From assembly GCA_964187785.1 (NCBI GenBank), contig OZ076409.1, positions 70,744,001 through 70,808,000 of the forward strand: a stretch of DNA of 64,000 nucleotides. Direction: 5' to 3'. The DNA is from Amphiscolops sp. MND2022. Lineage: Eukaryota. The translations under genes and the position numbers were made by a program. Positions within the stretch are counted from its first letter, which is position 1, and every line of letters starts with the position of its first letter. The notes under the pieces were generated by a model, which was given only the letters and a program-made list of their open reading frames with translations, was not told the DNA's origin and made no database searches. Below, piece by piece: positions 1 to 53,098 of the stretch.

Positions 1-404
1 TCAAGTGTGTTTTTGAGTATGTTTGTATTACTTTAGAATCAATTAGAGCTTCAAGAAAAGTTTGCCAACGACAAAAACTATGTCGTGATGATTCCGTTAT
101 TAGAATGATAGTTAACAAAAGGTTGATAAAGTTGATTTTTTACATTTCAAATGTGTCCCAAATGCCAGCAAACCTCTTTACCAAACAAATGGTATTGATT
201 GGATTGTATATAACAGCTAATAAAAGTTCAAATTGAATATTACGTTTCATTATGGAAGCTGAAACGTCAAATTATAGTTTAATTAACGTCAACGCCACAT
301 ACTTTACATCAACGCCCACCGTCCGTAGGCATGCCGAGGCATGCCTTTCGACGACGTATACCAAATTCCACCCACACAACACCCTCGAGCGCGGTAGCAG
401 CTAG
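1..404 (+). repeat. Family A unit, partial (3' end)
   Basis: Matches the last ~400 bp of A units such as 11193-11596 and ends in GCAGCTAG. Confidence 0.93.
289..357 (+). promoter_or_regulatory. Universal right-arm core: 2x TCAACGCC + 20-bp palindrome + TTCGACGACGT (putative protein-binding or origin/termination signal; representative of 36 copies)
   Basis: TCAACGCC at 289 and 309, and AGGCATGCC-GA-GGCATGCCT at 327-346. Conserved in all families. The function is inferred. Confidence 0.6.
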
Positions 405-1979: not shown

Positions 1980-2394
1980 CTTCTAAAATCGTTAATCAAG
2001 AGTGTTTTTGGGTAGGTATATGTTGCATTAGTACCAATTAGAGCTTCATCAACAGTTTGCCAACGGCAAGAACGATGTCGTGATAATTCCGTTATGAAAA
2101 TATTAGTTAACAAATTGTTTTCAAAGTTGATTTTTTCCATTAAAAATGTGTCCTAATGCCACCAAATTGAATAAAATAATAAATGGTATTGACTAAAACT
2201 AAATAACAATGAAAAAGAAGATCAACATTTTTATTAGGTCTCACAAAGCTGAAACCTCACGTTTTAGTTTAATTAACGTCAACGCCACATACTTTACATC
2301 AACGCCCACCGTCTGTGGGCATGCCGAGGCATGCCCTTCGACGACGTATACCAAACAATCTCCATATCTACACCCTAACCGCGGTAGCAGCTAG

Positions 2395-3704
2395 GTGCCG
2401 GGATTTCTATTCGATAAAGTATGTGGCGCGTGTGGGTAGGGTCCCTGGCGCGCTCTTGGGTATGGTGTTCACCAGCTAGGAAATAGGGGTCGATTTTTCG
2501 GGATCTCGTAAACTAGCCACACGATTTGGCTGAAATTTGGCACACGTACTCCCCTCGGCACGGTGAAGATGATTTCCTACTGACGTTTTTCCCGCAAAAT
2601 TTTTTTTGTTGTCCAAAATAACGGTTTTTGGGGTAAAATTTTGAATTTTTTTTAAATTTTATCTTATATCTCGCCACCGGTTTAGGCTAGCGCTTCAAAA
2701 CCCTGCTAAAGAAAGCTTGCAAACTGTCTCAGGAATGCGGTGTGAAATTTTCAGCTCAATCGGACTTAAACTCGGGGAGATATAGCGTTTTTCCGGAGCG
2801 GGGGGGTTTCATTTTTCTAACGGTCCAGCTTATCTTAGCCATTTTTTCGAAAATGTACTCGCCTAAAGACCTCCCCTGGCCGGTTTTATTCCCAGCAAAA
2901 CCATTTGGCCCTAAATACGGAGTTTCAGCGTTCCAGCATTCCCGGGCGAAAAGTTGTGGGACTTAGAAAAATTCAAAAATTTTCAAAAAAAATTTTTTCC
3001 GTTTTCCGCCCTCCCCCCCTAGGGGAAAAGACCCCCCAACCAGTAATTTGAGTGAATTCATGTGGAAAGGCCATGTTTAGACGAAAAAATTGCCGTTTAG
3101 AACGTCTTTATATCTCAACCTGAACTTGACTTATGAAGCTTTAAAGGTGATGTTTGGACGTGTGAAGCATGTAAAAAAAGGAATTTTTTTGATTTTATTT
3201 CATCAGAAAGTCATTGAATCACACGCTGTGAAGCCCAGAGCGTGGTTTCTAATAGTTTGGTATCGTTTAAACGCATTTTGGTGTCTTTTTACTCTGTTCA
3301 AAAACTTTTCTCCTGAAAATTAATGAATTTTGATTACTTTTCTTACTTTCCATTAATTTTTTTTTTATATTTTTACTTGAAACAGTTGAGTACATTCCAT
3401 CTCCCTTCCCGGGGGAGATGAGAATGTACTCGCAAAAAGCCGCGAACTACGGCCCATACCTTCCCGAGATACGCAGTATAAAGATAACATAATGGTCCAG
3501 ACATTTTAATGGAGTTGTATCTTGGTAATATGTCTGGATTTGCAGAAAAATCAGCACGTGCCATTTTATACCAAGTTGCTCGCAACGACAATTAATTTAA
3601 ATCAACGCCCCCCACAAAAATCAACGCCCCCCGTCCGTGGGCATGCCGAGGCATGCCCTTCGACGACGTGCACCAAAATATGCCCCGAGCGCGTTAGCAG
3701 CTAG
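2395..3704 (+). repeat. Family B unit, subtype B1 (1310 bp)
   Basis: Starts GTGCCGGGATTTC and its interior is unlike A. It is similar to 61618-62904 and 57062-58335 and carries the same right-arm core. Confidence 0.92.
3388..3431 (+). other. 44-bp bulged hairpin of B units (representative)
   Basis: GAGTACATTC-CATCTCCCT-TCCCG-GGGGAGATG-A-GAATGTACTC, one per B unit. Confidence 0.85.
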
Positions 3705-6700
3705 GTGCGGGGGGGAAACCCCTTCCCTTATCTTGGAGGATTCGGGTAGGGTCCTGAATCCGAGTTCAGTGCCGCCAGCTCTCAGTAGAAATCTGGGCAT
3801 TTTTTTGCGATCTCGTGATCTAACCATAGGATTTTAAAGTTGGAGCGGCCCCCACCAGATTTTCCAAAGTTATTCGCCCCCCACCGGGTTCCAGCGTGAT
3901 TGAAATATTTTGACGGGGTACACGGGCGACCGTTAGGGGTCATTTTAGGGGTAAAATTTATATAATGTCGCATAACTTTTTTCCTGTTGGATTAAAACTT
4001 TGGGACTCTGCTAAAAGTTTCTTGACCGTGTTGCAGGGGCCCCGGATTTCCAAACCAAATTTTTCTATCTTGAAGCTATCTCCAAGTACCCCCCCGCTCA
4101 AACCGTTATTTTTCCGGAAACGCCGGTTTTTGACCCGGAAGGAGTCGTCTGAGCGCGGGGTCGTTAGGTGATGTATTGGGGACGGCCTTGAGACGAAGCG
4201 GGGGATATATAGTTTGCCGACCCCAGTTCACCCCCCGCACGGGAAATGACCGTTATATGAGCGGGAAAAATGCCCCCCTCCACGTTTTACCGCTATTTCC
4301 GGTGTGAAGGAGTGGGAGTAGCGCGTCGGGTGTTATATAACAAAAGTAGGTTTAGACAAGGACCTATCGGAAACATGTAGTTTGGGACCCCCTGGACCAA
4401 CCCGTTAGCGGGAAATGGGGCTTCCGCCTCCTTTTTTTACTGCTAAAACCGTAAAATGGGCATTGAGGGGTAAATATCTCGTGAACGCGTGGAGCATCGT
4501 GTCCATCACTACTACAAGGTTTCATACCCATGATATGGTGCCTTCAGGGGGGCAAACAGATTTCCGCTATCTATCACCGTTACCGACTTGGCCCCCCAGC
4601 CTAACCGCTATGTGACCGGAAATGTCACTTTTTGAGCCTAAAGGGTCGGTCCCAGCCGGGGAACGTTAGGTAACTTATTGTAGTACTCAATGAGACGAGT
4701 AGGGGGATACAGTTTCAGTCACCCCCCGTTACCCCTTGGGACCGGAAATGACCGTTATGTGGGTAAAATTGCGATTTTTGTACTTTTTGAAGGGCAATTA
4801 GGTGCGGAAGGAGTGGTAATAGGTGCTTGGACACTATTTGAGGTAAGGGAGGACGTGAGGCGAGCATTCGGAAATAACCGTTATGTTGACCCCAAAGTCC
4901 CCCTGGTACCGTAAACGACCGGAAATGGTCAAATTTTGTGTCTATTGAGTACAAATGTTTGGTGTTTTATGAATAAAAGTACCTATTAGGTGTTTCGACG
5001 GTCTGCAGTAGTGAACATAGTCATGAAACCTTACGGGGGGTAACGGTATATAGCACCGGAAGTCCAAACCGTTGGAGACAGGATAGGTTTTTTGGTTTGA
5101 AAATGTCTTTCGGCGTACTTTTGTTGACTATTATGGACTATTTTGAAAAATTAAAGTTTTTCCATATAGTTTCAGAGACTCCGAAACCTCAACCAACATA
5201 ACCGTTACCTTATGATAGCCTTTCAAGTTGGCCTGGTGTCAACTTGGAGGGGCTATCCTTCAAAAATCGTTAATCAAGTGTGTTTTTGGGTATGTTTGTA
5301 TCAATTTAGAATCAATTAGAGCTTCAAGAAAAGTTTGCCAACGACAAAAACTATGTCGTGATGTTTCCGTTATTAGAATAGTAGTTAACAAACTGTTGAT
5401 AAAGTTGATTTTTTACATTTCGAATGTGTCCTAAAAGCCAGAAAACCTCTTTAACAAACAAATGGTATTGATTGAATAGTATATAACAGGTAATAAAAGT
5501 TCAAATTGGTTATTACGTTTCATTATTGAAGCTAAAACTTCATAACATAGTTTTATTAACGTCAACGCCACATACTTTACATCAACGCCCACCGTCTGTG
5601 GGCATGCCGAGGCATGCCCTTCGACGACGTATACCAAAAACATACCTAACGACGCCCGTACATCCCGGGCTAGGTGCGGGGGGGAAACCCCAACAAAATT
5701 TTTGGAGGATTCGGGTAGGGTCCTGAATCCGAGTTCAGTGCTGCCAGCTTTCGTTAAGAAAATTTGGATAGGATTCGGGATCTCGTGATCTAACCATAGG
5801 ATTTTAAAGTTGGAGCGGCCCCCACCAGATTTTCCGAAAATTAGCGCCCCCCACCGGGTTCCATACCCCGGAAAATTTTTTTCTGGCCACACGGGCGACC
5901 GTTAGGGGGTCATTTTAGGGGTAAAATTCATATTGGGCCACATAACTTTTTTTCTGTTGATTTAAAACTTTGGGACCCTGCTAAAAGTTTCTTGACCGTG
6001 TTGCAGGGGCCCCGGAGGTCTAAACCAAATTTTTCTATCTTGAAGCTATCTCCAAGTACCCCCCCGCCCAAAACGCTATTTTTCCGGAAACGCAGGTTTT
6101 TGACCCGGAAGGAGTCGTCTGAGCGCGGGGTCGTTAGGTGATGTATTGGGGACGGCCTTGAGACGAAGTGGGGGACATGCAGTTTGCCAACCCCAGTTTA
6201 CCCCCCGGACGGGAAGTGACCGTTATATGAGCGGGAAAAATGCCCCCCTCCACGTTTTACCGCTATTTCCGGTGTGAAGGAGTGGGAGTAGCGCGTCGGG
6301 TGCCATATATCAAAAGTAGGTTTAAACAAGGACCTATCGGAAACATGTGGTTTGGGACCCCCTGGACCAACCCGTTAGCGGGAAATGGGGCTTCCGCCTC
6401 CTTTTTTTACGGTTAAAAACGGAAAATGGGCATTGAGGGGTAAATATCTCGTGAACGCGTGGAGCTACGGTGTCCTTCACTACTACAAGGTTTCATACCC
6501 ATGATATGGTGCCTTCAGGGGGGCAAACAGATTTCCGCTATCTATCACCGTTACGGACTTGGCCCCCCAGCCTAACCGTTAAGTGACCGGAAATGTCATA
6601 TTTTGAGCCCAAAGGGTCGGTCTCAGCCAGGGAACGTTAGGTAACTTATTGTAGTACTCATTGAGACGAGTTGGGGGACATAGTTTCAGTCACCCCCCGT

Positions 6701-24700: not shown

Positions 24701-27700
24701 TTAGGGTACAAATGATTAGAATTTTATGGAAAAAAGTACCTGGTCGGTGTTTCAACGGCTTGCAGTAGTGAACATAGTCATGAAACCTTGTGGGGGGTAA
24801 CGGTATATAGCACCGGAAGTCCAAACCGTTGGAGACAGGATAGATATTTTGGTTTTATAATGCCTATAAGCGTACTTTTGTGGGTTGAATCGTTTCAATA
24901 TCGACTAATTTGGATATTTTTTTGACATTGAAGGTTTTTTCAATAGTTTCAGGGACCTCCAATGCTTCAATCAACATAACCGTTACCTTATGATAGCCTT
25001 TCAAGTTGGCCTGGTGTCAACTTGGAAGGGCTATCCTTCGAAAATCGTAATTCAAGTGTGTTTTTGAGTACGTTTTCATTACTTTAATATCAATTAGAGC
25101 CTAATCTTTAGTTTGCCAACGACAAAAACTATGACGTGATGATACCGTTAGTAGAAGAATAGTTAACAATTTGTTGACAAAATTGATTTTTTGCATTTTA
25201 AATGTTTCCTAAATGCCAGGAAAACAATTTATCTAATGAATGGTACTGATTGAACCCAAGTATCATTTGAAAAAAAGTTAAACATTGTTTTTTCGTTTCA
25301 TTATGGAAGCTGAAACCTCACGTTTTAGGTCACTTAACGTCAACGCCACATACTTTACATCAACGCCCACCGTCTGTGGGCATGCCGAGGCATGCCCTTC
25401 GACGACGTATACCAATTACATATATATCTACACCCACCCGCGGTAGCAGCTAGGTGCGGGGGGGAAACCCCAACAAAATTTTTGGAGGATTCGGGTAGGG
25501 TCCTGAATCCGAGTTCAGTGCTGCCAGCTTTCGTTAAGAAAATTTGGATAGGATTCGGGATCTCGTGATCTAACCATAGGATTTTAAAGTTGGAGCGGCC
25601 CCCACCAGATTTTCCGAAAATTAGCGCCCCCCACCGGGTTCCATACCCCGGAAAATTTTTTTCTGGCCACACGGGCGACCGTTAGGGGGTCATTTTAGGG
25701 GTAAAATTCATATTGGGCCACATAACTTTTTTTCTGTTGATTTAAAACTTTGGGACCCTGCTAAAAGTTTCTTGACCGTGTTGCAGGGGCCCCGGAGGTC
25801 CAAACCAAATTTTTCTATCTTGAAGCTATCTCCAAGTACCCCCCCGCCCAAAACGTTATTTTTCCGGAAACGCAGGTTTTTGACCCGGAAGGAGTCGTCG
25901 GAGCGCGGGGTCGTTAGGTGATGTATTGGGGACGGCCCTGAGACGAAGTGGGGGACATGCAGTTTGCCAACCCCAGTTTACCCCCCGGACGGGAAATGAC
26001 CGTTATATGAGCGGGAAAAATGCCCCCCTCCACGTTTTACCGCTATTTCCGGTGTGAAGGAGTGGAAGTAGCGCGTCGGGTGCCATATATCAAAAGTAGG
26101 TTTAGACAAGGACCTATCGGAAACATGTGGTTTGGGACCCCCTGGACCAACCCGTTAGCGGGAAATGGGGCTTCCGCCTCCTTTTTTTACGGTTAAAAAC
26201 GGAAAATGGGCATTGAGGGGTAAATATCTCGTGAACGCGTGGAGCAATCGTGTCCTTCACTACTACAAGGTTTCATACCCATGATATGGTGCCTTCAGGG
26301 GGGCAAACAGATTTCCGCTATCTATCACCGTTACCGACTTGGCCCCCCAGCCTAACCGCTATGTGACCGGAAATGTCACTTTTTAAGCCCAAAGGGTCGG
26401 TCCCAGCCAGGGAACGTTAGGTAACTTATTGTAGTACTCATTGAGACGAGTTGGGGGACATAGTTTCAGTCACCCCCCGTTACCCCTTAGGACCGGAAAT
26501 GACCGTTATGTGGGTAAAGTTGCAATTTTTGTACTTTTTGAAGGGCAATTAGGTGCTGAAGGAGTGGTAATAGGTGCTTGGACACTATATGATGGAAGGG
26601 AGGACGTGAGGCGAGCGTTCGGAAATAACCGTTATGTTGACCCCAAAGTCCCCCTGGTACCGTAAACGACCGGAAATGGTCAAATTTTGTGTCTATTGGG
26701 TACAAATGTTTGGTATTCTGTAAATAAAAGTATCTATTAGGTGTTTCGACGGTTTGCAGTTGTGAACATAGTCATGAAAACTTGTGGGGGGTAACGGTAT
26801 ATAGCACCGGAAATCCGAACCGTTGGAGACAGGATAGGTTTTTTGCTTTCAAAATGCCTATAAGCGTATTTTTGTAGGTTGAATTGTCATAATATTGACT
26901 ATTTTGGATGTTTTTCTGACATTAAATGTATTTCCGATAGTTTCAGGGACCTCCTTTGCTTCAATCAACTTAACCGTTACCTTATGATAGCCTTTCAAGT
27001 TGCCCTCGTGTCAACTTGGAAGGGCTATCCTTCAAAAATCGTGAATCAAGTGTGTTTTTGAGTGAGTTTTTATTACTTTAGTATCAATTAGATCTTAATA
27101 ATCAAATTGTTAACGACAAAAACTATGTCGTGATGATACCGTTAGTAGCAGAATAGTTAACAACTAGTTGATAAAGTTGATTTTTTGCCTTTTAAATGTT
27201 TCCTAGAAGTCAGGAAAACAATTTACCTCATAAATGGTACTGATTGAACCCAAGTAACAGCTGAAAAAAAGTTGAACATTATTTTTTCGTTTCATTATGG
27301 AAGCAAAAACCTCACTTATTAGTTTCATTAACGTCAACGCCACATACTTTACATCAACGCCCACCGTCTGTGGGCATGCCGAGGCATGCCCTTCGACGAC
27401 GTATACCAAATACATACCTAACGACGCCCGTACATCCCGGGCTAGGTGCGGGGGGGTAACCCCAACTTTTTTCTTGGAGGAATCGGGTAGGGTCCTGATT
27501 CCGAGTTCAGTGCCGCCAGCTATCGTTAAAAACCTATACCTTTTAAACCCGATCTCGAGAACTAACCACGCCCCTTCTTTAATTTTTTGGCCCCCACTCA
27601 CTTTTTGATAGTAGATCGCCCCCCACTGGGTTCCAAGTTGGGCAAAAATGGAGGTCATGGGTAACGGGGACCGTTAAGGGGTAACTCAGGGGGTAAAATT

Positions 27701-30700
27701 TATTTTTTGCGTCATATCTTTTCCCCCCGTGGATTTAGCGCTTCCGGTCAGCAGACAAAACCTCATGTACGTGATACGGGGCCTCCATAGGTCCAAACAA
27801 AATTTTTCTATCATGCACCGTTACGGACTTGGCCCCCCGGCCCAACCGTTATTTTACCGGAAATTGCACTTTTTGACCGGGAAGGAGTCGTCTGAGCACG
27901 GAGTCGTTTGGTAATGTTTTGTAGTGTATCTGGAGACGTGTTGGGGGACATGTAGTTTGCCGGCCCCAGTTTACCCCCCGGACGGGAAATGACCGTTATG
28001 TGAGTTTTAAAATTACCCCCCTTCAATTTTCCCCGTTATTTCCGGTGTGAAGGAGTGGGAGTAGCGCGTCGGGTGCCATATATCAAAAGTAGGTTTAGAC
28101 GAGGACCAACCGGAAACATGTGGTTTGGGACCCCCTGACCCAACCCGTTAGCCGTTATAAGGGTGATCGCCTCCTTTTTTTACACTCAAAACCGGAAAAC
28201 GGGTATTGAGGGGTAAATATCTCGTGAACGCGTGGAGCAATCGTGTCCATCACTACTACAAGGTTTCATACCCATGATATGGTGCCTTCAGGGGGGCAAA
28301 CAGATTACCGCTATCTATCACCGTTACGGACTTGGCCCCCCAGCCCAACCGCTATGTGACCGGAAATGTCACTTTTTGAGCCCAAAGGGTCGGTCCCAGC
28401 CTGGGAACGTTAGGTAACTTATTGTAGTACTCATTGAGACGAGTTGGGGGACATAGTTTCAGTCACCCCCCGTTACCCCTTAGGACCGGAAATGACCGTT
28501 ATGTGGGTAAATTGCCATTTTTGTACAATTTGGAGGGCATTTAGATGCGGAAGGAGTGGTAATAGGTGCTTGGACACTATATGATGTAGAAGAGGACGTG
28601 ATGCGAGCATTCGAAACTAACCGTTATGTTGACCCCTAAGTCCCCCTGGTACCGTAAATGACCGGAAATGGTCTAATTTTGTGTTTATTGGGTACAAATG
28701 TTTGGTATTTTATGGATTAAAGTACATGGAAGGTGTTTCAAAGGCCTCCAGAAGTGAACATCGTCATGAAACCTTGTGGGGGGTAACGGTATATAACACC
28801 GGAAGTCCAAACTGTTGGCCACAGAATAGGTTTTTTGGTTTCAAAATGTCTTTAGGCGTAGTTTTATGGGTTGAATCGTCATAATATCAACTATTACGGA
28901 CTTTTTTCGGAAATAAAATTTTTTCACATTAGTTTCAGAGACCTCCAATGCTTCAGTCAACATAACCGTTACATTTTGATAGCCTTTCAAGTTGGCCTGG
29001 TGTCAACTTGGAAGGGCTATCCTTCTAAAATCGTTAATCAAGAGTGTTTTTGGGTAGGTATATGTTGCATTAGTACCAATTAGAGCTTCATCAACAGTTT
29101 GCCAACGGCAAAAACGATGTCGTGATAATTCCGTTATAAGAATATTAATTAACAAATTGTTTACAAAGTTGATTTTTTCCATTCGAAATGTGTCCTAATG
29201 CCACCAAATTGAATAAAATAATAAATGGTATTGACTAAAACTAAATAACATTGAAAAAGAAGATCAACATTTTTAATAGGTCTCATTATGGAAGCTGAAA
29301 CCTCACGTTTTAACTTAATTAACGTCAACGCCACATATTTTTCATCAACGTCCACCGTCTGTGGGCATGCCGAGGCATGCCCTTCGACGACGTATACCAA
29401 ACAAACTCCATATCTACTCCCGATTGCGGTAGCAGCTAGGTGCGGGGGGGTAACCCCTACAAAGATATTGGAGGATTCGGGTAGGGTCCTGAATCCGAGT
29501 TCAGTGCTGCCAGCTATCGTTAGGGATTTTAGAAAATTTTGCCGATCTCGTGATCTAACCGTAGGATTTTAAAGTTGGAGCGGCCCCCACCAGATTTTCC
29601 AAAGTTATTCGCCCCCCACCGGGTTCCAGCGTGATTGAAATATTTTGTCGGGGTACACGGGCGACCGTTAGGGGTCATTTTGGGGGTAAAATTTATATCC
29701 GGTCGCATAACTTTTTTCCTGTTGGTTTAAAACTTTGGGACCCTGCTAAAAGTTTCTTGACCTTGTTGCAGTGGCTCCGGAGGTCCAAACCAAATTTTTC
29801 TATCTTGAAGCTATCTCCAAGTACCCCCCCGCCCAAACCGTTATTTTTCCGGAAACGCAGGTTTTTGACCCGGAAGGAGTCGTCTGAGCGCGGGGTCGTT
29901 AGGTGATGTATTGGGGACGGCCTTGAGACGAAGCGGGGGACATGTAGTTTGCCGACCCCAGTTTACCCCCCGGACGGGAAATGACCGTTATATGAGCGGG
30001 AAAAAAGCCCCCCTCCACGTTTTACCGCTATTTCCGGTGTGAAGGAGTGGGAGTAGCGCGTCGGGTGTTATATAACAAAAGTAGGTTTAGACAAGGACCT
30101 ATCGGAAACATGTAGTTTGGGACCCCCTGGACCAACCCGTTAGCGGGAAATGGGGCTTCCGCCTCCTTTTTTTACTGCTAAAACCGTAAAATGGGCATTG
30201 AGGGGTAAATATCTCGTGAACGCGTGGAGCAATCGTGTCCATCACTACTACAAGGTTTCATACCCATGATATGGTGCCTTCAGGGGGGCAAACAGATTAC
30301 CGCTATCTATCACCGTTACCGACTTGGCCCCCCAGCCTAACCGCTATGTGACCGGAAATTGCACTTTTTGAGCCCAAAGGGTCGATCCTAGCCGGGCAAC
30401 GTTAGGTAACATATTGTGGTACTCATTGAAACGAGTCGGGGGACATAGTTTCAGTCACCCCCCGTTACCCCTTAGGACCGGAAATGACCGTTATGAGGGT
30501 AAAATTGCAATTTTTATACATTTTGAAGGGCATTTAGGTGCGGAAGGAATGGTAATAGGTGCTTGGACACTATATGATGTAATGGAGGTCGTGAGGAGAG
30601 CATTCGGAAGTAACCGTTACGTTGACCCCAAAGTCCCCCTGGTACCGTTAACAACCGGAAATGGCCAAATTTTGTGTTTATAGGGTACAAATGTTTGGTA

Positions 30701-35377: not shown

Positions 35378-36662
35378 GTGGCCGTGTCTTTTCGACGTGC
35401 TTTTGCCTTGAGGAGTGGGTAGGGCCCCGCGACGACCTAGAAGAATTGGATGCTCACCGAAACGTGCAGAATTCTACGAGATCTCATAGTTTGAGCCATA
35501 CGATTTTTCTGAAATTTGGCATGTGGCCTGGAATTGGTGAGTAGGTAAAACGTGTAGAAGGTAATTTTTCCCAAATTCCACTGTGAGAGGAGATATGGGC
35601 AAATAACGGACCCAAAAATGGGGAAAATGCACTTTTTTCAAGTTTGTCAGCCAATATCTCATTTCCAGGTGCCCGTAGCGTTCCGCACGTGGACGTCAAT
35701 ATTGCTCAGCGCTGTTGGAAGAGTGCGTGGACAAATTTTGGTTTAAATCGGACTTAAACTTGACGAGAAATTAACGGTTTTTTGGGCGTTTCCGGGGTAA
35801 ATTTTTTAACGGTCCAGCTTATCTTTGCCATTTTTTCGAAAATGTACATGCCTAAAGGCCTCCCCCTGGCCGAATTTACTCCCAGCAAACCCATTTGGCC
35901 CTAAATACGGAGTTTCAGCGTTCCAGCATTCCGGGGCGGAAAGTTGTGGGACTTGGAAAAATTTCAAAATTTTTTCAAAAAATTTTTTTCCCGTTTTCCG
36001 GGCCCCCAATGAAGGGGAACGACCCCCCAACCAGTATTTTGAGTGAATTTATGTGAAAAGACCATGTTTGGAGGAGAAAAATGCCGTTTAGAACGTCTTT
36101 TTATCTTAACTTGACATTGACTTATGACGTTTTGAATGTGATGTTAGCAAATATATGAAGCATGTTAAAAGTTGAAGTTTTGAGTCTTTATCTCATCGGA
36201 AAACCATTGAGATACAAGCAGTTTTGCTGAAAACGATTTTCATTGTAGGTTAGCAGAGTATTAGTACACTTTGATGTCGTTTGAGTATTTTTTTTCTTCT
36301 ATATAATAACTGTTTTTATGTATTTATTCCATTTTATCTCATCTTTTAACTTCAAGCAGTTGAGTACATTTCATCTCCCTTTCGGGGGAGATGAGAATGT
36401 ACTCGCTAAAAACCTAATGCTATGGCGCCAATGTTTGGATGGGAAGTTTTTTATGCTTTGAAAAAAGTTATTTTTACTTACTTGATTTTTTAAAACAATA
36501 ATTAACATGAAGTACATTACTTGCTCCTACTACTACCACCATACATCTCTAACGTCAACGCCCCCTGCTTGCATCAACGCCCCATCGTCCGTGGGCATGC
36601 CGAGGCATGCCCTTCGACGACGTATGCCAAATGCCCAGTGCCACGCAGTCTTTCCCCGCTAG
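35378..36662 (+). repeat. Family B unit, subtype B2a (1285 bp)
   Basis: Starts GTGGCCGTGTCTTTTCG and shares the B central block and the GAGTACATT hairpin. Confidence 0.92.
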
Positions 36663-37930
36663 GTGGCCGTGTCTTTTCGACGTGCTTTTGCATTGAGGAG
36701 TGGGTAGGGCCCCGCGACGACCTAGAAGAATTGGATGCTCACCGAAACGTGCAGAATTCTACGAGATCTCATAGTTTGAGCCATACGATTTTTCTGAAAT
36801 TTGGCATGTGGCCTGGAATTGGTGAGTAGGTAAAACGTGTAGAAGGTAATTTTTCCCAAATTCCACTGTGAGAGGAGATATGGGCAAATAACGGTCCCAA
36901 AAATGGCAAAAATGCACTTTTTTCAACTTTGTCAGCCCATATCTCGTTCCCAGGTGCCCGGAGCGGGACGCGTTAAGCTGATTATAAACTCTAGGGTGTT
37001 GAGGCTGTACGGGGAAGTCAGGCCCGTTCCGATCGGACTTGTAGTCTTGGAGAAATAACGGTATTTTTGGGGAACCTTTTCTAACGGTCCAGCTTATCTT
37101 TGCCATTTTTTCGAAAATGTACTCGCCTAAAGGCCTCCCCCTGGCCGAATTTACTCCCAGCAAAACCATTTGGCCCTAAATACGGAGTTTCAGCGTTCCA
37201 GCATTCCCGGGCGAAAAGTTGTGGGACTTGGAAAATTTTCAAAAATTTTCAAAAATTTTTTTTTCGTTTTCCGGGCCCCCAATGAAGGGGAAACGACCCC
37301 CCAACCAGTATTTTGAGTGAATTCATGTGGAAAGCCCTTGTTTTGACGAGAAAAATACCGTTTAGAACATCTTTTTATCTTGACTCAACGTTGACTTATG
37401 ACGTTTTGAATGTGATGTAAGGATGTAGGAGGCATGTGATAAGTTGATGTTTTGAGTCTTTATCTCATATGAAAGCGGTTGAGATGCAAGCTGTCCTGCT
37501 CAAAACGTCTTTCGTTGTAATTTTCCAGTGCACCAATACCCTTTGGTGTCATATAAACATACTTTTTGTCGATATATTAACAATTTTAATGTATTTATTC
37601 CAATTTTTATTATCTTATAACTCAAAACAGTTGAGTACATTTCATCTCCCTTTCGGGGGAGATGTGAATGTACTCGCTAAAGACCTAGCGCCATGACCAA
37701 AAGTTTGAAACCCACGTTTTTTATCTTCTTACAGACTTGTTTTTGTATTTTTTCGGAATTTTTTAAAAATTAATATACTTGAAATACATTACTTGACTTT
37801 ACTACTACAATCCACCTCCAACGTCAACGCCCCCCTGCTTGCATCAACGCCCGCCGTCCGTAGGCATGCCGAGGCATGCCTTTCGACGACGTATGCCAAA
37901 TACCCAATGCCACGCTGTCATTATCGCTAG
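36663..37930 (+). repeat. Family B unit, subtype B2b (1268 bp)
   Basis: Same left arm as B2a, with a different block at ~36960-37080 and a different 3' third. Confidence 0.92.
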
Positions 37931-39199
37931 GTGGCCGTGTCTTTTCGACGTGCTTTTGCATTGAGGAGTGGGTAGGGCCCCGCGACGACCTAGAAGAATT
38001 GGATGCTCACCGAAACGTGCAGAATTCTACGAGATCTCATAGTTTGAGCCATACGATTTTGCTGAAATTTGGCATGTGGCCTGGAATTGGTGAGTAGGTA
38101 AAACGTGTAGGAGGTGATTTTTCCCAAATTCCACTGTGAGACGAGATATGGGCAAATAACGGTCCCAAAAATGGCAAAAATGCACTTTTTTCAACTTTGT
38201 CAGCCCATATCTCGTTCCCAGGTGCCCGGAGCGGGACGCGTTAAGCTGATTATAAACTCTAGGGTGTTGAGGCTGTACGGGGAAGTCAGGCCCGTTCCGA
38301 TCGGACTTGTAGTCTTGGAGAAATAACGGTATTTTTGGGGAACCTTTTCTAACGGTCCAGCTTATCTTTGCCATTTTTTCGAAAATGTACTCGCCTAAAG
38401 GCCTCCCCCTGGCCGAATTTACTCCCAGCAAAACCATTTGGCCCTAAATACGGAGTTTCAGCGTTCCAGCATTCCCGGGCGAAAAGTTGTGGGACTTGGA
38501 AAATTTTCAAAAATTTTCAAAAAATTTTTTTTTCGTTTTCCGGGCCCCCAATGAAGGGGAAACGACCCCCCAACCAGTATTTTGAGTGAATTCATGTGGA
38601 AAGCCCTTGTTTTGACGAGAAAAATACCGTATAGAACATCTTTTTATCTTGACTCAACGTTGACTTATGACGTTTTGAATGTGATGTAAGGATGTAGGAG
38701 GCATGTGATAAGTTGATGTTTTGAGTCTTTATCTCATATGAAAGCGGTTGAGATGCAAGCTGTCCTGCTCAAAACGTCTTTCGTTGTAATTTTCCAGTGC
38801 ACCAATACCCTTTGGTGTCATATGAACATACTTTTTGTCGATATATTAACAATTTTAATGTATTTATTCCAATTTTTATTATCTTATAACTCAAAACAGT
38901 TGAGTACATTTCATCTCCCTTTCGGGGGAGATGAGAATGTACTCGCTAAAGACCTAGCGCCATGACCAAAAGTTTGAAACCCGCGTTTTTTATCTTCTTA
39001 CAGACTTGTTTTTGTATTTTTTCGGAATTTTTTAAAAATTAATATACTTGAAATACATTACTTGACTTTACTACTACAATCCACCTCCAACGTCAACGCC
39101 CCCCTGCTTGCATCAACGCCCACCGTCCGTGGGCATGCCGAGGCATGCCCTTCGACGACGTATGCCAAATGCCCAGTGCCACGCAGTCATTTTCGCTAG
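37931..39199 (+). repeat. Family B unit, subtype B2b (1269 bp)
   Basis: Near-identical to 36663-37930 except for the terminal palindrome allele and tail. Confidence 0.92.
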
Positions 39200-40479
39200 G
39201 TGGCCGTGTCTTTTCGACGTGCTTTTGCATTGAGGAGTGGGTAGGGCCCCGCGACGACCTAGAAGAATTGGATGCTCACCGAAACGTGCAGAATTCTACG
39301 AGATCTCATAGTTTGAGCCATACGATTTTTCTGAAATTTGGCATGTGGCCTGGAATTGGTGAGTAGGTAAAACGTGTAGAAGGTAATTTTTCCCAAATTC
39401 CACTGTGAGAGGAGATATGGGCAAATAACGGACCCAAAAATGGCAAAAATCCACTTTTTTCAACTTTGTCAGCCAATATCTCTTTTCCAGGTGCCCGTAG
39501 CGTTCCGCACGTGGACATCAATATTGCTCAGCGCTGTTAGAAGAGTGCGTGGACAAATTTTGGTTTAAATCGGACTGAAACTTGGCGAGAAATTAACGGT
39601 TTTTTGGGCGTTTCCGGGGTAAATTTTTTAACGGTCCAGCTTATCTTTGCCATTTTTTCGAAAATGTACATGCCTAAAGGCCTCCCCCTGGCCGAATTTA
39701 CTCCCAGCAAACCCATTTGGCCCTAAATACGGAGTTTCAGCGTTCCAGCATTCCGGGGCGGAAAGTTGTGGGACTTGGAAAAATTTCAAAATTTTTTCAA
39801 AATTTTTTTTCCCGTTTTCCGGGCCCCCAATGAAGGGGAACGACCCCCCAACCAGTATTTTGAGTGAATTCATGTGGAACGCCCATGTTTAGAGGAGAAA
39901 AATGCCGTTTAGCACATCTTTTTATCTTAACTTGACATTGACTTATGACGTTTTGAATGTGATGTTAGGATATATGAAGCATGTTAAAAGTTGAAGTTTT
40001 GAGTCTTTATCTCATCGGAAAACCTTTGAGATACAAGCAGTTTTGCTAAAAACGATTTTCATTGTAGGTTAGCAGAGTATCAGTACACTTTGATGTCATT
40101 TGAGTATTTTTTTTTCTAAATAATAACTGTTTTTATGTATTTATTCCAATTTATTTCATCTTTTAACATCAAGCAGTTGAGTACATTTCATCTCCCTTTC
40201 GGGGGAGATGAGAATGTACTCGCTAAAAACCTAATGCTATGGCGCCAATGTTTGGATGGGAAGTTTTCTATGCTTTGAAAAAAGTTATTTTTAATTATTT
40301 GATTTTTTAAAACAATAATTAACATGAAGTACATTACTTGCTCCTACTACTACCACCATACATCTCTAACGTCAACGCCCCCTGCTTGCATCAACGCCCC
40401 ATCGTCCGTGGGCATGCCGAGGCATGCCCTTCGACGACGTATGCCAAATGCACAGTGCCACGCAGTCTTTCCCCGCTAG
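39200..40479 (+). repeat. Family B unit, subtype B2a (1280 bp)
   Basis: Closely similar to 35378-36662. Confidence 0.92.
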
Positions 40480-41767
40480 GTGGCCGTGTCTTTTCGACGT
40501 GCTTTTGCATTGAGGAGTGGGTAGGGCCCCGCGACGACCTAGAAGAATTGGATGCTCACCGAAACGTGCAGAATTCTACGAGATCTCATAGTTTGAGCCA
40601 TACGATTTTTCTGAAATTTGGCATGTGGCCTGGAATTGGTGAGTAGGTAAAACGTGTAGAAGGTAATTTTTCCCAAATTCCACTGTGAGAGGAGATATGG
40701 GCAAATAACGGACCCAAAAATGGCAAAAATGCACATTTTTCAACTTTGTCAGCCAATATCTCTTTTCCAGGTGCCCGTAGCGTTCCGCACGTAGACATCA
40801 ATATTGCTCAGCGCTGTTGGAGGAGTGAGTGGACAAATTTTGGTTCAAATCGGATTTAAACTTGACGAGAAATTAACGGTTTTTTGGGCGTTTCCGGGGT
40901 AAATTTTTTAACGGTCCAGCTTATCTTTGCCATTTTTTCGAAAATGTACATGCCTAAAGGCCTCCCCCTGGCCGAATTTACTCCCAGCAAACCCATTTGG
41001 CCCTAAATACGGAGTTTCAGCGTTCCAGCATTCCGGGGCGGAAAGTTGTGGGACTTGGAAAAATTTCAAAATTTTTTCAAAATTTTTTTTTCCCGTTTTC
41101 CGGGCCCCCAATGAAGGGGAACGACCCCCCAACCAGTATTTTGAGTGAATTCATGTGGAACGCCCATGTTTGGAGGAGAAAAATGCCGTTTAGCACATCT
41201 TTTTATCTTAACTTGACATTGACTTATGACGTTTTGAATGTGATGTTAGGATATATGAAGCATGTTAAAAGTTGAAGTTTTGAGACTTTATCTCATCGGA
41301 AAACCAACCATTGAGATACAAGCAGTTTTGCTAAAAACGATTTTCATTGTAGGTTAGCAGAGTATTAGTACACTTTGATGTCATTTGAGTATTTTTTTCT
41401 TCTATATAATAACTGTTTTTATGTATTTATTCCAATTTATCTCATCTTTTAACATCAAGCAGTTGAGTACATTTCATCTCCCTTTCGGGGGGGAGATGAG
41501 AATGTACTCGCTAAAAACCCAATGCTATGGCGCCAATGTTTGGATGGGAAGTTTTCTATGCTTTGAAAAAAGTTATTTTTAATTACTTGATTTTTTAAAA
41601 CAATAATTAACATGAAGTACATTACTTGCTCCTACTACTACCACCATACATCTCTAACGTCAACGCCCCCTGCTTGCATCAACGCCCCATCGTCCGTGGG
41701 CATGCCGAGGCATGCCCTTCGACGACGTATGCCAAATGCCCAGTGCCACGCAGTCTTTCCCCGCTAG
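40480..41767 (+). repeat. Family B unit, subtype B2a (1288 bp)
   Basis: Closely similar to 39200-40479 and followed at CTAG|GTG by an A unit. Confidence 0.92.
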
Positions 41768-51709: not shown

Positions 51710-53098
51710 GTGGTTGGGGCGGTCCCCAGAACGCACAAGGAGGCGCGGGGAGGGTCCTGCGCCGACGTAGAATAATTTCATATAATACTAGTATCCTACA
51801 TGGGTGTTTTAGAGGCGATTTTGGAATCTAACCGTAGGATTTGGATAATTTTTTGCATGCGGCCATAACTCGAAATTCCAAGAACTTTTCCCTACTGTCA
51901 TTTTCCCCGCAAATTGTTTTTTGTTGACTTATGGCCGAAAAACCGGAAATAACGTCCTTTTTAGACGTTATATCCGAAGTGTCGTCATAACTTTTTTCCA
52001 GGGCATGCTAGCGTTCTCGTTCACTTTTACACTTAGTTGCAGCATCTCAAAATACAACTGGTGGAAAATTTTGGTTGCATTCGGATCACCCCCCACCGAG
52101 ATAGAAGGGTTCCCCCCTCCAGTTTTACCCCCCAAATTTGCAAAATAGCCAATTTTGAGCATGAAGCCGAGGATTTAGCGTACCCGCACCCTCCTGATGT
52201 TTTGTTGTACGTATTGGGGTCAATCTGACGACATGTGTGGTTTTCACCCCCAACCCCCCCTTGGACCGGAAATGACACTTTTTTGTGTTTTTTGGCCGAA
52301 TTTAGCCGTTTTCATTATTAGGCAGTCGTTTTAGGGGCTCCTAGCAGGATATCGAAATTGAAATACAACCTGATCACAACCCAGTGACAACATGTTGGCC
52401 ACTTGGAGGTATCATCATGACCGGAAGTGCTGTCAACCCCCCTTTTTGTGACCGCTTTTTGACCTTGTGCACCAAAATGCCAACATCTTGAGGCCTAATG
52501 AGGCATTCAAATCTGTACAAAGATAAAATGTTAGACAACCGAAGTCCCGGAAGATCTTTAGCATATACCGGAAGTTACCCCCAATGACCGGAAGTTACCC
52601 AATGTGACCGGAAATGGTCCAAAAATTAATGTAAAGTTGAATTTTTCACTATTTCAAGACCACTTAATTGAAACTTTTCAATCTAAAAACTAGCGTACTG
52701 GCTTGTTTTGCTGAATTTATGGAAATTGATGAGCTCTATCGCCCCCGATAGCCTTCGAAGTTGACCTTGCGTCAACTTTGTAGGCTATCGATAAAGAAAA
52801 ATGAACAACAAAGTACATTGTTGCTCTCGTTTTTTTCCCGTTGTTTTTCCTCAAACATTCTTGAGACATATACATGGCCGTTAGTTGAAATCAATATTTA
52901 GCCCATGTTATAGCTGGAGCAGCGAAGCGTTACACAGACTAGTGTGGTTTTGAAATCACACTATTTAAATTAACAACTGACCGTCTTAGTCAACGCCACA
53001 CATTCATACCAACGCCCACCGTCTGTGGGCATGCCGAGGCATGCCCTTCGACGACGTATGACGAATCCACTCCAACGACACCCGCAGTCCTCAGCTAG
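51710..53098 (+). repeat. Family C unit (1389 bp), single copy in the window
   Basis: Starts GTGGTTGGGGCGG and its interior is unique. It retains the AGGG-loop hairpin, an A-like long hairpin (52746-52790) and the right-arm core. Confidence 0.9.

Follow-up and report, generated by a model that had tools for sequence, protein, structure and literature searches.

The 64,000-nt stretch of DNA analysed here, referred to throughout as the window, consists of repeated units whose right arms share a pair of direct repeats and a palindrome. It raises the question of what these arms do and how units of different families come to be joined end to end. An earlier note had likened the arm to a Rep-binding, rolling-circle origin with iterons, a palindrome under selection for its symmetry, and a fixed cut site. 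We find that units are exchanged at a short core outside the palindrome, and that the arm is better described as one end of a mobile unit.

The array and its unit families

The window is a single head-to-tail array with 36 junctions and 35 complete units, all in the same orientation, and with a partial A unit at each of its ends. Its main parts are as follows.

1–64000, + strand: head-to-tail array with no coding capacity found (repeat and junction mapping, ORF list, Pfam)
405–2394, + strand: example of an A unit, with CCGTTA/TAACGG boxes at a ~161-bp period
2395–3704, + strand: example of a B unit, subfamily B1 (family assignment, junction mapping)
35378–41767, + strand: five B2 units in a row (junction mapping)
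51710–53098, + strand: the only C unit (family assignment, junction mapping)

The complete units comprise 25 of family A (~1.97 kb), nine of family B (~1.28 kb) and one of family C (1.39 kb); they are non-coding, range from 1.3 to 2.0 kb in length, and are 79–99% identical among A units and 63–99% among B units. The families, whose interiors had been said not to align, are distant relatives: the first ~280–390 nt of the units align weakly between A, B and C, and nhmmer comparisons give E values of 4e-6 for A versus B1, 3e-5 for A versus C, and 5e-22 for B versus C. The A units are internal mosaics, and unit interiors contain invariant runs of 19 and 18 nt in family A and one of 29 nt in family B. 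The A unit at 27446–29439 is far more diverged than the others (79–87% identity to other A units, 180 private variants) and is probably a separate subfamily. In the run of A units at 5674–27445 there is one common head haplotype, yet the tails and interiors differ. Adjacent near-identical units occur twice (V21/V22 and V23/V24, 98–99%), unit age shows no trend from one end of the array to the other (Spearman -0.08), and CpG is not depleted in the window (observed/expected 0.92–1.1).

The 64-kb window has no long ORF, those present being short, and the seven ORFs tested of the 12 longest stop-to-stop ORFs match no Pfam family; no transposase or recombinase gene is seen within it. Rfam returns no match over the window at the gathering threshold (three sub-threshold matches within 2150–3900 were rejected), and ARAGORN finds no tRNA genes. 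A hammerhead-core motif was dropped as it is not consistent from unit to unit.

All A units contain CCGTTA/TAACGG boxes, which may resemble Myb sites, with 12 occurrences in the unit at 405–2394 where 1.5 are expected. The 11 sites kept in at least 13/25 A units sit on a 161.5-bp period (R 0.90; 0/1000 random placements), which is close to a nucleosome repeat, and an old ~500-bp internal duplication may contribute to this phasing. Boxes with the sequence ACCGGAA(G/A)T, presumably similar to ETS sites, are repeated in the A and C interiors (e.g. 52417–52615).

The right arm and its palindrome

The right arm is exemplified by the copy nearest the start of the window, in which the following elements are seen.

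289–296, + strand: distal TCAACGCC direct repeat; both repeats are exact in 30/36 arms
309–316, + strand: proximal TCAACGCC direct repeat, 10–11 nt upstream of the palindrome
327–346, no strand assigned: 20-bp palindrome R-GGCATGCC-GA-GGCATGCC-Y, each arm self-palindromic, with a 19/20 match to the p53 consensus
320–353, no strand assigned: extended dyad, with CGTC (320–323) and GACG (350–353) around the 20-mer and 3-nt unpaired gaps; invariant

The 18-bp palindrome core, GGCATGCC-GA-GGCATGCC, is exact in 36/36 copies, all on the + strand (shuffled sequences average 0.09 matches with 3 mismatches allowed), and the TTCGACGACGT located 3' of it is exact in 35/36. The motif described in the earlier note is thus real and its coordinates hold, and the view of the arm as a conserved terminal cis-element of mobile units stands; it forms the right end of the units. 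The TCAACGCC boxes do occur as pairs at the positions reported for them (289/309, 3602/3621, 36555/36574), but not every pair is intact; their spacing is 20, 19 or 18 bp in 29, 6 and 1 copies, respectively, and the spacer, previously called freely varying, is nearly fixed inside family A.

The outer pair of the palindrome is G..C in 28/36 copies and A..T in 8/36 (at 327, 11519, 17460, 19435, 23382, 33330, 37862 and 45673), and single-sided changes are seen in none, as had been reported. The argument built on this pattern, that selection acts on the symmetry, is not supported by a closer count of events. In the extended dyad, 12 of the 13 possible pairs are invariant and one changes on both sides, among 15 arms picked to cover the families (12 of them distinct). 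The seven A-family carriers of A..T have one common arm-and-tail haplotype, and the metagenome contig L001, described below, is identical at 51/51 positions to the A form with A..T, so that only one to three events lie behind the pattern; the carrier in a B unit has ~40 bp around the palindrome in common with the A haplotype. Template-directed correction of a palindrome could give a double-sided change without selection. Within families the best interior runs are at least as well conserved as the palindrome, which is the longest invariant run in neither A nor B; it is distinguished by its survival across families.

Both outer-pair alleles match 19/20 positions of the p53 consensus with a spacer of 0, in 36/36 copies, the consensus being two RRRCWWGYYY decamers separated by 0–13 bp as given in PMC3485254. 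No other p53-like site with two or fewer mismatches is present in the 64 kb, and a palindrome would fit the consensus this well about 1 time in 4000 by our own, post hoc arithmetic. The palindrome arms are invariant and each is self-palindromic, a property that a hairpin does not require and that counts toward a double-stranded site, so a double-stranded site read by its sequence fits better than a hairpin read by its structure. The sequence suggests a protein site for a dimer or tetramer rather than a nick site, and its reader may be a p53-family protein or the transposase. The likeness to the p53 response elements described in transposons (EnSpm-N6_DR, PMC3485254) is in the two decamers and the spacer of 0, with 19/20 positions matched by both alleles here; the sites here are candidates, and differ in occupying a fixed subterminal place in every family.

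Exchange of units at the junction core, and the left-arm hairpin

The junction between two units, the left end of the downstream unit and the interior palindromes are represented by the following.

358–400, + strand: variable tail, 28–43 nt from TTCGACGACGT to CTAG; it travels with the upstream unit, and only some tails fold
401–407, + strand: invariant junction core CTAGGTG, the unit exchange point (CGAGGTG in L001), from junction alignment and linkage
438–461, + strand: left-arm hairpin, a family-specific covarying stem with the 6-nt loop KAGGGN closed by GG/CC (stem alignment)
509–534, + strand: second conserved left-end box, GATCTCG...A.CC...GATTT, weakly common to A, B, C and L001
1936–1979, no strand assigned: long imperfect interior palindrome of A, with a C counterpart at 52746–52790 (sequence comparison)
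3388–3431, no strand assigned: long imperfect interior palindrome of B, bulged by one base and present in 9/9 B units and L001

The core CTAGGTG is invariant in 36/36 junctions and absent elsewhere in the window. It sits 39–54 nt downstream of the palindrome, the distance being variable, and the intervening tail belongs to the upstream unit at every junction; of the 24 distinct tails, only four reach a folding z of -2.4 or lower. Directly after the core the family (A, B or C) switches at 10/36 junctions, comprising 9/34 between complete units and the last junction. Where one A unit follows another, linkage between the tail and the head of the next unit is at chance level (r2 0.049 against a null of 0.053, p 0.44; 20 adjacent pairs), whereas linkage in family A persists across the palindrome (r2 0.147, p 0.003) and is kept at 18/19 interior cuts of A, the lone exception having only 3 x 4 sites. 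In 13 unit pairs with at least 96.5% identity a near-identical neighbour is shared in none (the best is 93.9%, among available neighbours), and there is no higher-order repeat, near-identical units being found beside unlike neighbours. Linkage that is lost at the core and kept elsewhere, together with the unlike neighbours of near-identical units, places the exchange of single units in the 7-bp core and not in the longer shared arm; the exchange point lies outside the palindrome. The fixed cut site proposed in the earlier note therefore has a counterpart in a fixed exchange point, but this is CTAGGTG, at a variable distance past the palindrome.

Adjacent A units have correlated heads (r2 0.197, p 0.005), which suggests local bursts or local conversion. 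No terminal inverted repeat (TIR) was found in the units and no dyad around the core, inverted repeats flanking it having a mean of 3.0/11 matches. Neither an array end nor an empty site is present within the 64-kb window, and CTAGGTG could thus equally be a target that was duplicated or the overlap of a recombinase.

The hairpin that is conserved by structure is in the left arm, beyond the coordinates given in the earlier note, and not in the right palindrome. It is located 37–61 nt inside the left end, and the stem folds in A, C, L001 and most B units, with only five pairs in B2. Six of its 11 pairs are changed on both sides among 10 distinct arms, and the covariation score of 0.384 compares with 0.219 in shuffled alignments, a test that is inflated by the relatedness of the arms, and with at most 0.222 in slid controls. 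A compensated stem change is also seen in the A unit at junction 15.

In the interior of every family there is a single long imperfect palindrome, 255–420 nt from the right end (566–607 in L001), and these are of two types, one with the one-base bulge in B and L001 and another in A and C. In three hairpins, mismatch sites on the + strand are G.T rather than A.C by 10 to 3, a bias that is weak (two-sided binomial about 0.09, our own arithmetic) and gives a weak hint that the + strand folds. There is no deamination-type strand bias in rare variants (C>T 15, G>A 28).

This layout is real outside the window, as it recurs in L001 and in the sequencing run X1. A metagenome scan with the extended dyad gave one contig, L001 (1172 bp), with a B-like interior (68–78% identity, up to 82% in short patches), a right arm with one exact TCAACGCC, the core CGAGGTG, and beyond it a further unit that has the left hairpin. 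Of sequencing runs, one of low depth, X1, is listed as containing the sequence, with no RNA run listed; X1 has A- and B-like pieces; its contigs cover 24/30 bins, with one contig spanning a junction and two tail types absent from the window. None of the X1 loose ends listed has a non-element flank; at those matching window positions 2355 and 390, one tail forms a clean stem of 6 bp just ahead of where the junction is expected. Viral contigs gave 0 matches to four patterns, phage and plasmid collections gave no match by blastn, and prokaryote genomes gave 0 matches to the extended dyad; seven prokaryote matches to the bare palindrome, none with the core or the left hairpin, were taken as chance. 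The gene-less array, the lack of prokaryote or virus matches and the undepleted CpG suggest that the host is a eukaryote, perhaps an invertebrate. The papers searched do not describe any array in which several families meet at a single fixed core, although the unit families may already have entries in Repbase or in paper supplements.

Candidate mechanisms and their meaning

We consider the chances about even that the units are non-autonomous, non-canonical rolling-circle transposons (HUH-type, Helitron-like) of a probably eukaryotic genome that insert into existing head-to-tail junctions. This reading builds on the unit boundaries, invariant core, single-unit shuffling, covarying left-arm hairpin and lack of ORFs described above. 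A transposase with its gene elsewhere would make a nick in the + strand between the CTAG and GTG of the core (CTAG/GTG), one unit would be peeled off as a circle, 5'-GTG...CTAG-3', and the circle would be rejoined at another CTAG/GTG because each junction in the chromosome has the sequence of the circle junction at which these enzymes cut; a chromosomal junction that is a ready substrate would explain the mixed arrays. The right arm would be the 3' (termination) end, in which the palindrome and the two TCAACGCC boxes would serve to bring in the transposase or a host factor, perhaps a p53-family protein. A rolling-circle enzyme, as invoked in the earlier note, is thus our leading guess as well, separated from the plasmid-type origin to which it had been tied.

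The units resemble canonical Helitrons (HLE1; Helraiser/Helibat) in that all units have CTAG at the 3' end, as Helitrons do, and in having no TIR, a subterminal palindrome, one orientation, no ORF and head-to-tail junctions; the canonical 3' CTRR is present as CTAG at 36/36 junctions of the window. PMC5876387 describes head-to-tail junctions and arrays of Helitrons, as well as the precise cleavage by Helraiser of its own top-strand junctions. The third-clade Helitrons of Paramecium, in the account of PMC13085455, have a CCAA end and a telomeric target, so other termini and strict targets exist; they share with the units non-canonical termini, strict target and orientation, and many ORF-less copies. 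The likeness is one of layout, and the target there is the telomeric repeat whereas here it is the element's own junction.

Several features depart from the Helitron pattern. The 5' end is GTG and not TC (36/36), with no TC on the - strand either, L001 reads CGAG and not CTRR, and the palindrome, with its invariant arms, is 39–54 nt from CTAG, compared to the 16–20 nt palindrome about 11 nt from the 3' end of canonical Helitrons (PMC4067079). The units are also unlike HLE1 in having a covarying hairpin at the 5' end and several families mixed at one junction. By the definitions in PMC4067079 and PMC11417382, a canonical Helitron (HLE1) was rejected on the 5' TC and the hairpin distance, and a Helentron/Helitron2 (HLE2) on the sub-terminal inverted repeats and the T-T site: the best local score for such repeats was 5–8 in nine units, at unshared places, and the junctions read CTAGGTG. 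Non-autonomous HLE2 elements (HINE, DINE-1) are similar in that both ends are structured, and differ in that the units have no matching 5' sub-terminal inverted repeat and no T-T junction. The palindrome of mite HINEs is 38–60 bp from the 3' end (PMC4067079), and the internal ~165-bp periodicity of the units recalls the 166-bp minisatellite reported for Heli2Xen (PMC12001565). The units may work like Helitrons without being classed as Helitrons. Multimers of the KolobokP type (PMC9587614) were rejected, the units being without long direct repeats or TIRs.

The foremost rival, though an unlikely one, is a Crypton-like tyrosine recombinase acting on double-stranded unit circles, with crossover within the 7-bp overlap CTAGGTG and with the TCAACGCC pair and palindrome as arm-type or accessory sites. 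Seven bp is within the 6–8 bp overlap of such recombinases, and the strict core identity in the array and the linkage loss at the core fit. Cryptons, as described in PMC3212892, have no TIRs, many have 4–6 bp terminal direct repeats, and circles have been proposed for them, and some CryptonV families are target-specific (PMC8869645). The 7-bp core that the units share would be compatible with a short terminal direct repeat. Unlike Crypton/CryptonV, the units have no dyad around the core, the 11–13 bp inverted repeats being absent (mean 3.0/11 matches), and no partner recombinase gene is seen in the window. Animal Cryptons, moreover, are reported in PMC3212892 as lacking terminal repeats, and double-stranded recombination needs no hairpin that is conserved by structure and biased to the + strand.

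A bolder proposal, which we likewise regard as improbable, is that the units belong to a class of eukaryotic DNA elements that target themselves and have not been described before. Any family member would be inserted by a non-canonical HUH transposase into any existing head-to-tail junction, building integron-like mixed arrays, and the conserved p53-family site and phased boxes in each unit would give host control or a chromosomal role.

A target-specific DDE transposon similar to Dada is less probable than the Crypton-like rival. In this case CTAGGTG would be a 6–7 bp target-site duplication, remade at each insertion so that families stack; PMC3706591 describes Dada elements as free of TIRs, with 6–7 bp duplications, and reports two families in tandem with a single duplication between their copies. 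The small-RNA gene target of these elements is not found in the window (Rfam 0, ARAGORN 0), however, the units have no sub-terminal inverted repeat in common at a constant distance from the core, and the tandems described in PMC3706591 are short and not arrays of at least 36.

The plasmid- or virus-type double-strand origin, with iterons, a cruciform and a nick in the hairpin, and with the array as a rolling-circle concatemer, is very unlikely. Two direct repeats spaced by about two turns of the helix beside a perfect dyad are in its favour, the repeats next to the palindrome being both exact in 30/36 arms, as are the adjacent near-identical units V21/V22 and V23/V24. In pMV158-type origins the nick is inside the hairpin (PMC10288648), whereas the exchange point here is outside the dyad by 39–54 nt and at a variable distance, with linkage kept across the dyad. 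Mixed families are not expected from a concatemer of one circle, one direct repeat is degenerate in L001, and the viral, phage and plasmid collections contain no match; the iteron, hairpin and nick layout of the earlier note is therefore set aside. A passive complex satellite, which unequal crossing-over and gene conversion would maintain while the arm persisted as a binding site for a host protein, is the least credible, as the mosaic A interiors, the correlation of neighbouring heads (r2 0.197, p 0.005) and the CCGTTA boxes at their nucleosome-like 161-bp period would suit it, but homology-driven exchange is expected in the ~60-bp shared arm and not in a 7-bp core, and near-identical units have unlike neighbours with no higher-order repeat. 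The probability that is left goes to further routes, an RNA intermediate being one example.

Arrays of tandem transposons are generally interpreted as concatemers of one family or as satellites in decay. In the window, exchange at a single 7-bp site has stacked several families, and the array thus grows by targeted insertion; the arm is a real and informative terminal element, and the joining of several families at one fixed core is without an account in the literature searched. If the enzyme is an HUH protein, as in the preferred rolling-circle reading, the units would represent a Helitron-like lineage that has new ends and targets junctions, and annotation tools based on TC/CTRR ends or on TIRs would miss such elements. 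The presence of a near-consensus candidate p53 site in every family and in L001, the interior of which is only 68–78% alike, points to a connection of element mobility with a host stress factor that can be tested directly.
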